DNA of 64,000 bases from a virus, in IMG/VR virus record IMGVR_UViG_3300019776_000213, positions 1 to 64,000 of that record; one strand, written 5' to 3'. The translations under genes were made by a program, and so were the position numbers. The notes under the pieces were generated by a model. The model ran no database searches. It was not told where the DNA came from and saw only the letters and a program-made list of their open reading frames with translations. Shown here in pieces: positions 5,878 through 57,425 of the stretch (the first letter of the stretch is position 1; every line of letters begins with the position of its first letter).

Positions 5878-7224
5878 ATGACACTACATCAAATTATTAA
5901 AGCTTTACAACAAGCTTCTGGAAGTAATGCAAAGCAAGTTATTCTTCAGCAGAATAAAGATAATACGCTTTTGAAGGCTTATTTGAAGGCTGTGTATGAC
6001 CCTGCTATTAGCTATTACCAAACTAAAACATTAACATATAAAAATAACATGGGATATGGCTTTAATAGCGGAACTATTTCTGCTTTAATAAGCACACTGG
6101 CAAACAGAGAGCTAACAGGTATCCAAGCTAAAACTTGGTTAGACAATTTAATGAAGGCTTCTAACGATGAGTCACAAGAGTTAATTCAACTACTTATCAA
6201 ACGTTCTATAGGTGCTGGAGTAGGTGACTCATTAATATTGGGAGTATTTCCAGACTTGTACTTTATTCCGCCCTATCAACGCTGCTCACTACTTGATGAA
6301 AAGATTAAGGCTAAGTTTGAGAAGCTCAATAGTTTTATAATTCAAGAGAAGTTGGATGGAAGCTTTTGCTACCTTGTTAAAGAGGCTGGAAAGGCTCCAG
6401 AAGCGATTACAAGGGCTGGTAGTAAGTATCCTACAGAGTTTTCTGAAAAACTTGCTAAAGGGCTTCCTGATGGGTTTGTAGCTGTTGGAGAGTTACTTGT
6501 GTATAGACCTAACTACTATGAGAGAACTCTAGAACCTTTAAGCAGAAAAGAGGGAAACGGCATATTAAATAGTATTCTAAAAAGGGGAGAAGTAGATGCT
6601 AATTTAACTTTTGAATTGACAGCTTGGGACTGCTTAACTGTTAACGAATGGAAGGAAGGTAAAAGTAGTAAGCCATACCATCAAAGATTGGATAATTTAG
6701 ATGAAGTAATCTCAGATATGAGTAATGTTCGACCTATTACGACTCATTACGTAAGTAAGCTAGAAGAAGCTTATAAAATCTATTCTAAATTTACAGCACA
6801 AGGACTTGAGGGCGCTGTTATAAAAAGTAAAGATTTCAAATGGTCATCAGGTACATCTAAAGATTGTGTAAAGCTAAAGATTGAGTTTGAAATGGACTTG
6901 CAAGTAATTAGTATTACAGAAGGAACAGGAAAAGCTAAAGCGATGATGGGAAGTATTACTTTAAAATCATCGGACGGAATTATTGTGACAGACTGTGGTA
7001 GTGGATTCTCTGATGAAGATCGTGAAGAATGGTGGAATAATCAAGATAACCGAATTGGAAGTATTGTTACAGTTAAAGCAAATGACATTATTACAAAGCG
7101 AGATAGTGAAATAAGAAGCCTGTTTTTACCAATCTATATTGAGCATCGCCTTGACAAGTCAGAAGCCGATAGTTATCATAAGTGCGTTCAACAACTTGAA
7201 GCAGCCAAGAGAGGTAACAAATGA
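5878..7224 (+). CDS. ATP-dependent DNA ligase
   Basis: QEKLDG motif I, GELL, WD, EGAVIK, KLK, CGSGFSD OB domain. Confidence 0.93.
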   Translation: MTLHQIIKALQQASGSNAKQVILQQNKDNTLLKAYLKAVYDPAISYYQTKTLTYKNNMGYGFNSGTISALISTLANRELTGIQAKTWLDNLMKASNDESQELIQLLIKRSIGAGVGDSLILGVFPDLYFIPPYQRCSLLDEKIKAKFEKLNSFIIQEKLDGSFCYLVKEAGKAPEAITRAGSKYPTEFSEKLAKGLPDGFVAVGELLVYRPNYYERTLEPLSRKEGNGILNSILKRGEVDANLTFELTAWDCLTVNEWKEGKSSKPYHQRLDNLDEVISDMSNVRPITTHYVSKLEEAYKIYSKFTAQGLEGAVIKSKDFKWSSGTSKDCVKLKIEFEMDLQVISITEGTGKAKAMMGSITLKSSDGIIVTDCGSGFSDEDREEWWNNQDNRIGSIVTVKANDIITKRDSEIRSLFLPIYIEHRLDKSEADSYHKCVQQLEAAKRGNK

Positions 7225-50766: not shown

Positions 50767-52218
50767 TTAATAAACTGTTGGAATTGGAGAGGATTGTGAT
50801 AGGTTTGGTATGGCGAATGTGGGGATTGTATAAGATTTTAGCAGTGCTTTCATGGCCGACGCGCAGGAGTCCCATAAATCGTCCTTTTGCTTTCTGTTAC
50901 CATCAATGAAATTTTCAAGTTCTGTAAATAAAAACTCATTCCATTCAGGGTCAACCAATACTTTTACAAACCCTGCTTCAGCTAGAGTAAGGAACGGTTG
51001 CATCCTTTGTAATTTGCTCTTGGTTCCACCTGTCCTATCAACCCTTGCATCTACTCCTGCGTCTACTAGTGTCTTTAAGAAAAACATTGTTGCCGCTTTA
51101 GCTGCTACACCAACGTCCTCTGGTATATATACAGGGCAATTAATTCCCAAACCTTTATCTCTTTTATCTGTTTCAATAATAGTATCAAGAACACCATTTA
51201 TTAGTTTGCGATACTTTTCAGCGTGATGTATAATATAATAACCGTCTTTAGTTTTTGACATCATGACAGATGCAGTCCAGTCTGGGTCTGGATAAGCCTC
51301 AGAAGGTAAACTGCCTGCCAAGTCCATTGCCCTTACCGTACTTACTATGTTATCAGGTAATTCTGTAATCATCTCACACCAAGCTCGTTTAAAGTAGCCT
51401 TGTGTTTCTTGAATAGCGTGCCAGCTTCCTAAGAAAAGACGTTCTCGTTCAGTTCTTTTAAGATTTTGTAAACGGTTCAGGTATGCTGGCTGCTCACGGC
51501 ACAGCACAGGATTGTCAAGAATTGTCGCAGAGATATAAGTGTAGCTTTGAGCATGTATAGTGTCTCCATATAGTGTTTCAAGTTCCTCTTTTGAGTCTGC
51601 TGTTACAGTTTCGCCATTATACGTAGCATACCATCGTTCTTTTCCAGATAATTCAGGTCGTGGAATACCTGTATCCATGTCTAGGTATGCTTGTACAAAC
51701 TTATATAAGTAAGAAGTTCTTGATGGGTTAGCTGTGCAAATTAACTGATGTGGTGCTTTAGCTTTAGACCTGATACGTGATTCAAGGTATTTAATTTGCA
51801 CTTCACTATGCCATTGAGCTTCATCGAATATTACTAATGAGTATTGTCCACCGTCGAAGTTATTAATATCCCTGTCTGCACCACATACTTTAAACTGTAC
51901 TTGCGCGCCAGATGGAAAAGTTGCAGACATCGTAGGGTGAGACTTGAACTTAGCCCCATAATCCCTCCACATATCCTGAGCTTCCATGAACAGACCACCA
52001 GCTTGAGTAAGTTGTGTACTTGTCTCACGAATAAACACTGCCCTAAAAAAGGGGTCATTAACATATTTTAATATTAACATCAGTGCTTGGTGTGACTTGC
52101 CTGATCCAGCACCGCCGCCGAAGATGACGAAGTTAGACTTACAGTTTAAAAACATCTTATGAGCTTCTGAGGAAGGAGCTAATACCTTCCTCTTATTCTC
52201 TTTAACCTCTTTACTCAT
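50767..52218 (-). CDS. terL: Terminase large subunit
   Basis: Walker A GGAGSGKS, Walker B IFDE, TANP, nuclease MDLA..DWTA..DDLWD. Confidence 0.95.
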   Translation of the reverse strand: MSKEVKENKRKVLAPSSEAHKMFLNCKSNFVIFGGGAGSGKSHQALMLILKYVNDPFFRAVFIRETSTQLTQAGGLFMEAQDMWRDYGAKFKSHPTMSATFPSGAQVQFKVCGADRDINNFDGGQYSLVIFDEAQWHSEVQIKYLESRIRSKAKAPHQLICTANPSRTSYLYKFVQAYLDMDTGIPRPELSGKERWYATYNGETVTADSKEELETLYGDTIHAQSYTYISATILDNPVLCREQPAYLNRLQNLKRTERERLFLGSWHAIQETQGYFKRAWCEMITELPDNIVSTVRAMDLAGSLPSEAYPDPDWTASVMMSKTKDGYYIIHHAEKYRKLINGVLDTIIETDKRDKGLGINCPVYIPEDVGVAAKAATMFFLKTLVDAGVDARVDRTGGTKSKLQRMQPFLTLAEAGFVKVLVDPEWNEFLFTELENFIDGNRKQKDDLWDSCASAMKALLKSYTIPTFAIPNLSQSSPIPTVY

Positions 52219-53081
52219 TAATTACCTCCGTTTTATTGTTATCTATATTGACACGGAGGTTTATTTCATCTATAATTAACTGCCTAAGACTGTCAATATC
52301 TACGTCGTAGAAACACTCAGAATACCCATGAAAATATTTTACTGGTTGATCATAATTAGACTTTAGATATTTCAATATTATTTGTTCTATATCCCTGCAA
52401 TAGATACCATTCATGCAGAAGTTATCTATTATTTTAAAGTCTAACTTACTCTTTCTACGAATGTAGGCACAACGCGCACTTCTGACAGCCTAGACTTACA
52501 AGATGAATAGATGGCTTTTGTTTAAACACACCGTGCTTACTACATATAATTTTTACATAAGTAGCAGTATTTACATAATCTACCAAAGAGTAATCATACC
52601 TGTTACCGTGTCTGCTCTTTGCTTTTTCAATAAACTCTTCTGTCGTTAATAACTTGCTCTTGCATAAGTTATAGCAAAATTCTTTACCACATGAAGGACA
52701 ACCTTGTTTCATATTTACATGCGCATAAGGCGACTGAGCGAACTCACCATGTTTTCCACAAATTATCTTGACTTTAGAGTCGCAATCAGTATATTCTATT
52801 AGTGAGTAGTCATACTTATCTCCATGAATTGATTTTGCATTTGCTATAAAACCATCTTTACCTATCTTTTTGTGTTTACTTTTAAGACTATTTCCACACT
52901 TAGTGCAACCATAGCCATTTATATGCCAAGTAGGAGTTTGTAATACGTCACCATGTACAGGACAGCCTATTATTACCTTTTCAGTGCTGCATTTATACAC
53001 TACTTTACTGTAGTTGTACTTAGTTCCATGTTTAGCAATAGCTTTCTTAATAAAATCTTCTGTTGTAACTTTTATTCCCAT
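52211..53081 (-). pseudogene. Degraded homing endonuclease (DUF723-like repeats; nuclease core deleted, frameshifted)
   Basis: Three FI.KA...HG.KYDYS..V.I.C..HG repeats; stop at 52455; C-terminal piece with E..IL..FHGYSECF in another frame. Confidence 0.7.
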
Positions 53082-53320
53082 ATAACCCTTCCAAGGTTGT
53101 TTTCAAATAGTATTATTTCTGACAACTCAACACGTATTGGAAGGGTTTGCCAAGCTGCCAGAAATAATAACACTCAAAAGCAAAAAGCCACTACAGGAAC
53201 CCCTATAGCAGCCTCTTGTATTACTCTATCACAGAAGACTCTCTGCAATATATCTGGCTCACACGCTTCCATTGTCCAGACTTGCTGCAACATTCCTTGC
53301 AGCTTCTCCACAAATATAGA

Positions 53321-53424
53321 CCTACTTATAGGTCGCATTTAAAGCAGCACCCTCAATCGAGGTAAGGAGAGGAGGAGAAAAACCCTCAAAAGAAGATGCT
53401 AGTTTAAATGCACCTTATAATAGG
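53321..53424 (-). ncRNA. Long hairpin RNA with pyrimidine-rich anti-Shine-Dalgarno loop
   Basis: GCAUUUAAA/UUUAAAUGC, AGCAUCUUC/GAGGGUGCU, UUGAGG/CCUCGA; G-U wobbles fit the minus strand; loop GUUUUUCUCCUCCUCUCCUUA. Confidence 0.6.
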
Positions 53425-53502
53425 GGAACTATAAATAGAGATACTATAAATAGTAACGATCCTGCTGATAAGATGACTTTAGCTTGATCAGAGCCTTATA
53501 AC

Positions 53503-53578
53503 TGGAGCGACGTGTCGGAGTCGAACCGACGACATATAGATTGGAAATCTATCGTTCTTCCAACTGAACTAACATCGC
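53503..53578 (-). tRNA. tRNA-Gly(TCC)
   Basis: 76-nt cloverleaf, anticodon arm ATAGA-TTTCCAA-TCTAT, GTTCGA T-loop, encoded CCA. Confidence 0.92.
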
Positions 53579-53586
53579 TTTGAAAC

Positions 53587-53632
53587 TGGCAAACGTGGTA
53601 GGATTTGAACCTACGACTTTCGGTTTTGGAGA
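53587..53632 (-). pseudogene. 3' half of tRNA-Trp(CCA)
   Basis: CTCCAAA loop, ACCGA, T-arm GTAGG-TTCAAAT-CCTAC, CCA end; no matching 5' half. Confidence 0.75.
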
Positions 53633-53636
53633 TCAC

Positions 53637-54010
53637 ATAATATTCGCTATTCGCAAATACAGAATAATTGCCCCGTATTACTCAGTGAGAAAGTGCCGAG
53701 GACTTTAGGAATCGTCATTCCATTTCTTTTATTACAAGGGACATTTCTACACACTTATTCGGATTTCATCATCACCGTATCAAGGCATGTGTCTTCGGTG
53801 AATCGTGTAGAGGGTTTAGTTGCAGTACATAGCGTCAATTCGCACACAGATGCCTACCTGTTTTATCCCAATAACCCATTAGCACGTAAGTGCCACCTCG
53901 AACTGCATTTTACTACATCACTCGCATGGGTAACAACTTCTGTCCATCGCACCAGTGATACAAACTAAACGGTAAGAGCCTTTCTGTTAACAGGATACGA
54001 TCTAGTTTGT
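53637..54010 (-). ncRNA. Candidate ~375-nt structured ncRNA
   Basis: Consecutive helices and a loop-loop pairing; begins at the predicted TSS. Confidence 0.55.
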
Positions 54011-54016
54011 TTTATA

Positions 54017-54046
54017 ATTATACTACATACACCTATGATTTGTCAA
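54017..54046 (-). promoter_or_regulatory. Promoter for ncRNA/tRNA transcript
   Basis: TTGACA-18-TATAAT. Confidence 0.7.
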
Positions 54047-54054
54047 GTGTTATT

Positions 54055-54420
54055 TTATTCCACGTCAACAATATTATCAAAATCAATCAAAGGAGTATTA
54101 TCTTCATCTTCCTCAGTCTCAAACTCGCCATCTGGAACAGAATCTTTAAAGTATTGCAACTGTTTCTCTAGACGATAAATCTTATCCATATTCTCTTCTT
54201 TAAGAACATCAAGATATTTTGTAACAAGAATCTTAGCTGCTGTCACTTTCATACTAGTAGCTTCTTGAGGGTCATTAATAGTGCTTGCAAGAAACTCTAC
54301 AGAATTATTAAAATACTTTGAAAGCTTACGTCTTGCTGAATCTCTGCTCTTATTCTTAGTGATGAAGCCTCGTGCTACTTGGGTTGTAGTCACTTTAGTT
54401 GGTTGATCTGGTAGTGCCAT
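54055..54420 (-). CDS. Putative terminase small subunit
   Basis: First late-strand gene upstream of terL, helical, acidic tail; positional inference only. Confidence 0.4.
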   Translation of the reverse strand: MALPDQPTKVTTTQVARGFITKNKSRDSARRKLSKYFNNSVEFLASTINDPQEATSMKVTAAKILVTKYLDVLKEENMDKIYRLEKQLQYFKDSVPDGEFETEEDEDNTPLIDFDNIVDVE

Positions 54421-54449
54421 TATGTTGCTCCTATTCCTTAATAAGTCGA

Positions 54450-54531
54450 ATTGTATCAGAAAATTCTCATTTGTCAAGTATTATTTGCAATATAAATTAA
54501 CACTTGCATTTTTCAGAAGTTGTGGTATTAT
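54450..54531. promoter_or_regulatory. Divergent promoter pair
   Basis: Minus TTGACA-16-TACAAT (54450-54477); plus TTGCAT-16-TATTAT (54504-54531). Confidence 0.65.
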
Positions 54532-56666: not shown

Positions 56667-57425
56667 ATGACAAACAAAGAGAAATATGAAGGTGCACGAT
56701 TTGAAAGTAAATCTTATGGATGGTACACTGTTATTGAATATAATAACTCTATCGATATAACAGTTAAATTTGATACAGGCTTTATAAAGAAATGTGCGTT
56801 AAAAGAAATGTTATCTGGTGGTATTAAAGACCCAACTGTCCCAAATGTTTATGGAGTTGGGTTTATTGGAGCTGGTAAATATACTTCACAAATTGTTAGA
56901 GGAAACAATAATCCGTGTTATGACTCTTGGAAGGACATGTTAAAGAGGTGCTATTCAGAAGATACAAGATCAAGAAAGTATTACTTCGGATGTACTGTTG
57001 ACAATGAGTGGTTAAATTATCAGAACTTTGCAGAATGGTATTACTCTAATATTAAATGTAGTGGTAGAGTAGAAGTAGATAAAGACCTATTAATAAAAGG
57101 AAATAAAATATATTCAGCAAAGACATGTTCTCTGGTTCCACAACAAATCAATACATTATTCTCAGGAGCTGGTAAAAAGTACAGAGGTAAGTATCCTTTA
57201 GGGGTACATTTTAGTAAAGAACGCAAACAATTTGCTGCGAGACTGGAGAGAAGAGGAGAAGCAAAAACACATTTAGGGTGGTTCACTACTGCTGAGGATG
57301 CATTTCTGTGTTATAAACATCATAAAGAGATTCATGTAAAAGAAACTGCCAATAAGTTTAAGGATATGATATCTGAAGAAGTTTATGATGCTCTGATGAA
57401 ATATGAAGTTGACATAAATGACTAA
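56667..57425 (+). CDS. HNH/AP2-type homing endonuclease
   Basis: W.DMLKRCY, NFAEW, VDKDLL.KGNKIYS..TC, YPLGV; related to 17294-17896. Confidence 0.75.
   Translation: MTNKEKYEGARFESKSYGWYTVIEYNNSIDITVKFDTGFIKKCALKEMLSGGIKDPTVPNVYGVGFIGAGKYTSQIVRGNNNPCYDSWKDMLKRCYSEDTRSRKYYFGCTVDNEWLNYQNFAEWYYSNIKCSGRVEVDKDLLIKGNKIYSAKTCSLVPQQINTLFSGAGKKYRGKYPLGVHFSKERKQFAARLERRGEAKTHLGWFTTAEDAFLCYKHHKEIHVKETANKFKDMISEEVYDALMKYEVDIND

Follow-up and report, generated by a model that had tools for sequence, protein, structure and literature searches.

The window analysed here is a stretch of 64,000 nucleotides, bases 1-64000 of a complete virus record of 79,766 bp with direct terminal repeats (IMGVR_UViG_3300019776_000213), and the part of it under discussion is an interval at 53637-54010 that lies on the minus strand between a 140-aa ORF and, in this order, half of a tRNA-Trp gene, an intact tRNA-Gly gene, an HNH endonuclease gene and the large terminase gene (Table 1). 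Some 420 nt devoid of ORFs separate tRNA-Gly from the HNH endonuclease. PhoH was also identified in the window, and beside it and a ClpP-like protease stands a second HNH endonuclease gene (56667-57425, plus strand), less than 5 kb from the first (52455-53081, minus strand). A resolvase-type serine recombinase of 212 aa is encoded in the same genome outside the window (78014-78436, plus strand; Pfam PF00239, 114 bits), and no tyrosine integrase (no Phage_integrase domain) was found in the complete genome.

Table 1. Features at and around the non-coding interval, listed in the direction of the predicted transcript.
Feature	Position	Strand	Remarks
140-aa ORF	54055-54477	-	from the ORF list; directly upstream of the promoter
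Sigma-70-type promoter, TTGACA-18-TATAAT	54017-54046	-	12/12 match to consensus; predicted start near 54010
5'-terminal stem-loop, 11-bp outer stem	53957-54010	-	MFE -12.9 vs -6.5 +/- 2.3 kcal/mol in shuffles, z -2.83
Lineage-specific leader with central helices and proposed pseudoknot	53735-53956	-	stems at chance level
Motif E, three-helix RNA, 78 nt	53657-53734	-	model R1, 61.9 bits, E 1.5e-13
Motif E, P1	53721-53717/53712-53708	-	hairpin with invariant GACG loop; the 53708-21 helix of the initial annotation
Motif E, P2	53701-53697/53675-53671	-	CYUCG/CGRRG; encloses P3 and the variable distal part
Motif E, P3	53691-53687/53683-53679	-	minimal in this phage: 4/5 pairs, 3-nt loop
Motif M, palindromic 25-mer, core GCGAATAGCGAAT	53642-53666	.	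in the place of the missing tRNA-Trp 5' half
tRNA-Trp(CCA), 3' part	53585-53632	-	position 31 to encoded CCA; 5' half absent
tRNA-Gly(UCC), intact	53503-53578	-	ARAGORN; Rfam 67.5 bits; 6 nt downstream of the half tRNA-Trp
HNH endonuclease	52455-53081	-	gene identified; adjoins terminase
Large terminase	50767-52218	-	gene identified

The closest homologue of the terminase among 5.8 billion proteins is only 77% identical, so no near relatives of this phage are on record, and a scan of IMG/VR with TerL as a single protein returned no match; when the IMG/VR scan was instead based on an alignment, it yielded 62 related loci, which carry L numbers below. The 140-aa ORF, whose real start is probably about 20 codons inside the annotated frame, shares 26-29% identity with the small ORFs that precede the tRNA region in L031, L003, L005 and L006, as well as a common C-terminal P-L-x-D-F-D-N-I, and by this sequence comparison it corresponds in synteny to the small protein with an acidic tail found at that place in relatives; it belongs to no Pfam or PHROG family, and a metagenome scan with it found no relative. 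In many relatives the small ORF is followed at once by a consensus promoter and then by a non-coding leader of 200-400 nt, and loci L007-L031 repeat the layout of small ORF, promoter (TTGACA-17-TAnAAT), long leader and tRNAs. Among phage tRNA operons, a leader built in this way is nothing unusual. The tRNA cluster also sits at the same position in relatives, typically as Thr(UGU)-(Ser)-(Trp)-Gly(UCC), and L031 can serve as the example, with tRNA-Thr, 182 nt, an intact tRNA-Trp, 6 nt and tRNA-Gly. The family layout is thus kept in the window, but its tRNA-Thr is gone and its tRNA-Trp is truncated.

Several features of these relatives deserve a record of their own. Their tRNA-Thr(UGU) genes are 83-93 nt in length and possess a long extra arm, an unusual feature in a tRNA-Thr (L033 5856-5948; L010 3847-3934; L008 3089-3172; L025 5229-5311), and the leaders upstream of tRNA-Thr share a block of about 130 nt with the invariant, anti-Shine-Dalgarno-like CCCCUCCUC and no Rfam match (L008, L010, L012, L018, L020, L025, L028 and L031). 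The window and its three closest relatives have, instead of this block, a hairpin displaying CCUCCUC downstream of the tRNAs (window 53321-53424; L003 6740-6810; L005 5870-5950; L006 960-1050). Finally, L033 holds an insertion of about 260 nt between motif E and tRNA-Gly (6190-6490); an inverted repeat of 22 bp (TTGAAGTAGTATTTAGCAGGAG and its complement) delimits the insertion, which may be a small mobile element or a further structured RNA.

The initial annotation presented the interval as one pseudoknotted RNA of approximately 375 nt at the head of the tRNA transcript, and of this the non-coding leader running into the tRNAs stands, while the single pseudoknotted RNA is not supported, its folding being at chance level. 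All eight pairings that had been named were found in a base-by-base check: the helices 53960-67/54003-10 (8 bp), 53917-22/53954-59, 53821-26/53902-07, 53746-52/53805-11 (7 bp) and 53772-77/53796-801, the hairpins 53881-94 and 53708-21, and the long-range pairing of AGGCAT..GTGT (53783-92) with ACAC/ATGCCT (53844-55). It was also correct that the first helix begins soon after a -10 box (the promoter ends about 7 nt before it) and that the minus strand has no credible ORF, the longest being 30-35 aa with GTG starts. However, the folding statistics give a different picture of what these pairings mean. The minus strand of 54010-53585 (426 nt) has a minimum free energy (MFE) of -107.4 kcal/mol, compared to -104.05 +/- 5.9 kcal/mol in dinucleotide shuffles (z -0.57), and the plus strand scores z -0.80; the lower stability of the plus strand is mirrored in its own shuffles, hence the minus strand's advantage of 8 kcal/mol, and with it the argument that G-U pairs favour that strand, is an effect of composition. 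Perfect Watson-Crick stems of at least 6 bp number 17, where shuffled sequence gives 12.7 +/- 3.2 and 24 of 200 shuffles equal or exceed the observed count, and the longest of them (8 bp) compares with a shuffle mean of 7.7. The pseudoknot that was to link two domains fares no better, given that a bulged helix of at least 10 bp arises in 42 of 100 shuffles and that the domains themselves fold at z -0.29 (53960-53815) and z -0.40 (53860-53740). Among the helices listed at the outset, independent support exists only for the 5'-terminal hairpin, through its z-score (4 of 200 shuffles fold as well), and for 53708-21, through covariation in relatives, and two further helices of motif E and the truncated tRNA-Trp at the end of the interval had been overlooked. 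The lesson is a general one: lists of 6-8-bp helices read off the raw sequence need a shuffle control.

Motifs E and M are the only pieces of the interval that blastn and nhmmer recovered elsewhere, and outside them the sequence of the leader is peculiar to this lineage. Neither blastn nor nhmmer found a homologue of its 5' 278 nt (54012-53735) in the relatives, in five whole related genomes, in INPHARED or in metagenome loci, nhmmer with this query reported nothing at E values up to 10 across all of the relatives' loci, and INPHARED blastn with the region gave matches at the level of tRNA only. Contigs from four public runs were also compared with the window, and one related Logan contig of 1,227 nt spans the region: it is 79-89% identical to pieces of the small ORF and 97% identical (111/114) to 53636-53523, which covers the half-tRNA, the spacer and tRNA-Gly, and between these aligned flanks it has 436 nt that cannot be aligned at 80% identity or above where the window has 431 nt, so that the length of the leader is kept and its sequence is not. 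The leader does share 11 9-mers with tRNAs of relatives (6.8 expected, a difference within the shuffle range), nearly all of them with tRNA-Thr(UGU) and clustered at 53760-53728, a segment which, by this resemblance, may hold scraps of the lost tRNA-Thr.

These data bear directly on the reading closest to the original one, namely that the approximately 375 nt (perhaps 425 nt if the tRNA-like 3' end is counted) form, as a whole, one multi-domain pseudoknotted RNA that is specific to the lineage and has a function of its own, with motif E as a domain and the half-tRNA as its tail. The strength of the promoter and the presence of a helix directly at +1, the lack of an ORF, the significant 5' hairpin, the real structured domain that is motif E and the 97% conservation of the half-tRNA in the related contig are all in keeping with it, and the similar length of the two leaders fits a length-constrained RNA as well as it fits neutral drift; large tertiary-folded RNAs can, moreover, show unremarkable MFE z-scores. 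Yet the z-scores of the whole region and of its central domains, the helix counts and the pseudoknot helix are all at chance level, the leader has diverged more quickly in sequence than pieces of the ORF next to it, and motif E occurs in relatives directly after tRNAs with no counterpart of the 5' 278 nt, and I therefore regard a single large RNA as improbable.

Known families were examined in parallel. Rfam 15 models at gathering thresholds returned only tRNA in the whole window, and a permissive scan of 53300-54200 at E values up to 10 added nothing to tRNA except noise at 14-20 bits. GOLLD and ROOL are large structured RNAs often found beside tRNA genes in phages and prophages, and they had been offered as a precedent for the interval. 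The leader resembles them in being non-coding, phage-borne, tRNA-adjacent and without known function, but those RNAs are 500-800 nt in length with extensive covariation, whereas only 78 nt are conserved here and the rest has no homologue and folds at chance level, and neither GOLLD (RF01998) nor ROOL (RF03087) nor any other Rfam 15 family reached its gathering threshold. The view that the interval is not tmRNA, RNase P RNA or an intron held: ARAGORN reports no tmRNA, no 5' strand complementary to CACGUUU lies near the transcript start, Rfam gave no RNase P match, and the group I intron model RF00028 finds nothing in the region at E values up to 10. As a positive control, the same model scores 62-79 bits on introns that it recognises inside relatives' terminase genes, which makes the negative result for the leader informative. 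These introns lie in the large terminase genes of L005 (7088-7352), L025 (7067-7276), L029 (2841-3057) and L006 (1304-1521); the terminase gene of the window has no group I intron, yet an HNH endonuclease gene lies directly upstream of it.

The structured functional RNA of this stretch is, on comparative sequence evidence, motif E, which comprises a hairpin (P1) with an invariant GACG loop, a linker with a conserved AAGYC and a second helix (P2) that encloses a third (P3), all of which are present in the window on the tRNA strand. A covariance model (R1) was built from six aligned copies, and a search with it together with a fixed-spacing pattern scan of IMG/VR (22 stretches) brought the collection to 23 copies, 19 of them distinct. 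Among the 19 distinct sequences, 98.9% of the cells are paired and 11 of the 15 base pairs show compensatory substitutions with changes on both sides, leading to a covariation score of 0.694 compared to 0.199 in shuffles, a value that none of 500 shuffles reach and that slid controls (0.175 or less) do not approach; RNAalifold on an unfitted MAFFT alignment returns the same three helices. Homologue covariation thus supports the part of the interval that includes the 53708-21 helix, while for the 5' 278 nt there were no homologues to align. An invariant U-G pair in P2, which would be A-C on the other strand, places the RNA on the tRNA strand, and every copy lies on the same strand as the adjacent tRNA genes.

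Motif E has no match among Rfam 15 families and appears to be undescribed. Each of 5 complete genomes carries it as a single copy, among them that of the cultured Burkholderia phage vB_BpP_HN01 (Schitoviridae), where it is unannotated and lies 106 nt after tRNA-Asn (L216 2496-2591, equivalent to OM687511.1 70030-70125), and blastn also finds it in phages HN02-HN05. Downstream of it there is either a tRNA about 10 nt later or, directly, a ribosome-binding site and an ORF. The copy in the window is without the distal internal loop and hairpin present in most others and could be a decaying one. The stems vary in sequence and the unpaired nucleotides do not (AGAAAUG, the loop GACG, AAGUC and ACGG-GCA are invariant), a pattern that suggests a surface to which a protein, a ligand or RNA polymerase could bind, and the position of the motif suggests that it would act in cis on the tRNA/late transcript, through processing, stability or read-through. 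A catalogue of 8,495 candidate structured RNAs of DNA viruses has been drawn from IMG/VR (PMC10690425), and, as far as its main text goes, it is similar in resting on the same data source and on covariation in intergenic regions of phages, some of which lie close to tRNAs and ahead of terminase genes; motif E is not described in that main text, its supplementary tables aside, and would appear to be an added member of the growing set of structured RNA motifs from phages.

Between motif E and the half-tRNA, and overlapping the former, lies the palindromic motif M, which fills the roughly 37 nt where L031 has the 5' half of tRNA-Trp and a short spacer. It is identical at 24 of 25 positions in L005 and is also found in L003 (as two inverted copies), in L006 and in the genome that holds L051, upstream of HNH or terminase genes, and it folds into a hairpin as RNA. 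Motif M sites (L003 6883-6990; L005 5967-5991; L006 1113-1148; L066 about 1490-1525) are kept at 96-100% near terminase genes in intergenic DNA that is otherwise unalignable, and are sometimes repeated or inverted. When metagenomes were scanned with the 16-nt core, 120 stretches came back; almost all were chance or unrelated matches, and none contained motif E or the leader. Motif M is a candidate protein-binding or packaging site, and this invites the broader thought that the region works mainly at the level of DNA, in packaging (pac/cos) or regulation, with its inverted repeats and motif M as protein-binding sites. The location between the small syntenic (terminase-like) ORF and the HNH/TerL genes would suit such a role, as would a palindrome so well conserved just upstream of the terminase/HNH gene, but the compensatory changes and the invariant U-G pair of motif E speak for an RNA on the tRNA strand and the other inverted repeats are at chance level, so that I consider a mainly DNA-level function unlikely.

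The truncated tRNA-Trp raises questions of a different kind. What remains of it comprises the anticodon loop CUCCAAA, the variable loop, the T arm, the acceptor strand CACGUUU, G73 and CCA; the Rfam tRNA model aligns to it at positions 43-63 only (14.9 bits), positions 27-30 do not pair with 40-43, and no complete cloverleaf can be formed, while the side of the variable loop can pair with the acceptor 3' strand to make an imperfect T-arm hairpin of 13 bp with CCA at its end. Over 53598-53632 the window is about 89% identical to bacterial tRNA-Trp contigs (the best with 3-4 mismatches in 35 nt), and these contigs continue with an ordinary 5' half from the point of divergence, which sets the breakpoint at tRNA position 31. 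Since relatives have an intact phage tRNA-Trp at the same position beside tRNA-Gly, the fragment is best understood as a truncated phage tRNA gene. Together with the spacer it is as conserved as the intact tRNA-Gly in the related contig, in which the flanking leader is less than 80% identical, and from this comparison the half-tRNA appears to be under selection or to have been recently exchanged.

Two other origins for the fragment can be weighed. One is an attP-type relic, with the 3' part of a host tRNA-Trp as the integration core and arm sites in the upstream DNA. Many tRNA-targeting integration sites span the edge of the anticodon loop to the 3' end of the tRNA, exactly the extent of this fragment, and the similarity to bacterial tRNA-Trp genes would be expected of such a core. 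Against this, the complete genome has no tyrosine integrase and its only recombinase is the resolvase-type protein 24 kb away, which argues against integration; an exact 20-mer from the half-tRNA has no match in IMG/VR; and the relatives' phage-encoded tRNA-Trp occupies precisely this position, making an attP relic very unlikely. The other is that tRNA-Trp is interrupted by an intron or mobile insertion and that the flagged RNA is the intron, a notion encouraged by the end of tRNA homology at the edge of the anticodon loop, by the group I introns in relatives' terminase genes and by the two HNH endonuclease genes nearby. However, neither the DNA from the promoter to the fragment nor the rest of the 79.8-kb genome contains a strand complementary to the fragment, and thus a 5' half or 5' exon is absent; the predicted transcript starts only about 375 nt upstream; and the group I model, which detects the relatives' introns, is negative here at E values up to 10. 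An intron-interrupted gene is accordingly without support and hardly to be credited, and a split or permuted tRNA was rejected for the same missing 5' half.

Still less credible is a small protein gene on the plus strand, where an ORF of 91 aa with a GTG start (53693-53968) is the longest open frame in the interval; all of the neighbouring genes lie on the opposite strand to it, no convincing ribosome-binding site precedes it, it matches no PHROG family and no homologue among 5.8 billion proteins, and its start overlaps motif E.

In my view, with moderate confidence, the interval is a composite, mosaic non-coding operon leader and not a single pseudoknotted RNA of 375 nt. The phage would be of the virulent type, with a genome of about 80 kb, and host RNA polymerase would start at the sigma-70 promoter after the small syntenic ORF, giving an RNA that begins at approximately 54010 and runs through the leader, the truncated tRNA-Trp and tRNA-Gly in the direction of the genes for the HNH endonuclease and the terminase. 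The first piece of this predicted leader would be the 5'-terminal hairpin, probably a stabiliser that protects the 5' end of the transcript; the second, a lineage-specific and rapidly diverging spacer of about 220 nt with helices such as occur in random sequence of the same composition, possibly including debris of the tRNA-Thr gene that relatives carry there; the third, motif E, which is single-copy and always on the tRNA strand and which several phage lineages carry beside tRNA genes or immediately ahead of an ORF; and the fourth, motif M, the conserved palindrome that would have taken the place of the 5' half of tRNA-Trp.

Two groups of known RNAs offer comparisons for a leader of this kind. 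Spacers of bacterial tRNA operons can yield functional RNAs, as in E. coli, where the 3' external transcribed spacer of leuZ is an sRNA sponge, and motif E is similar in lying within the transcribed spacer of a predicted polycistronic tRNA unit, where its 3' side would, in many relatives, be set by RNase P cutting the tRNA about 10 nt further on. It differs from such spacer RNAs in being a conserved structure with covarying stems and not a linear pairing sequence, and in preceding an ORF rather than a tRNA in some phages. The second group consists of the cis-acting antitermination RNAs of lambdoid phages, the put sites of HK022 and the boxB hairpins of the lambda and P22 nut sites. By analogy of position and function, the leader has two stem-loops soon after a strong promoter and before late genes, with terminator-like hairpins at 53334-53319 and 53218-53181, downstream of these stem-loop elements, and P1 of motif E recalls boxB in that its 5-bp stem varies and its purine-rich loop does not; this loop is, however, the 4-nt GACG and not a GNRA-like pentaloop, and no boxA and no N-like or Q-like protein were identified in this phage. 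It is tempting to go further and propose that motif E represents a class of regulatory phage RNAs not described before, one that binds a ligand, a protein or a polymerase to control the processing or read-through of tRNA/late transcripts in unrelated phage families, including N4-like Burkholderia phages, and that in this phage the 5' hairpin, the orphan leader, motif E, motif M and the half-tRNA act as one RNA of about 430 nt with a tRNA-like 3' tail. This is speculation on my part, and the odds are against it.

A giant RNA of the GOLLD or ROOL type would have been notable, and the evidence does not carry such a reading. What it offers is an illustration of how a phage tRNA cluster decays and is rebuilt, with tRNA-Thr lost and half of tRNA-Trp replaced by a conserved palindrome, and yet with a remaining half whose 97% identity in a relative is hard to reconcile with junk. 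Motif E, which spans a group of uncultured freshwater phages with genomes of about 80-90 kb and a cultured Schitoviridae phage, also gives a testable handle on how phages organise and regulate their tRNA/late transcripts, and phages HN01-HN05 provide a cultivable system in which to test it.
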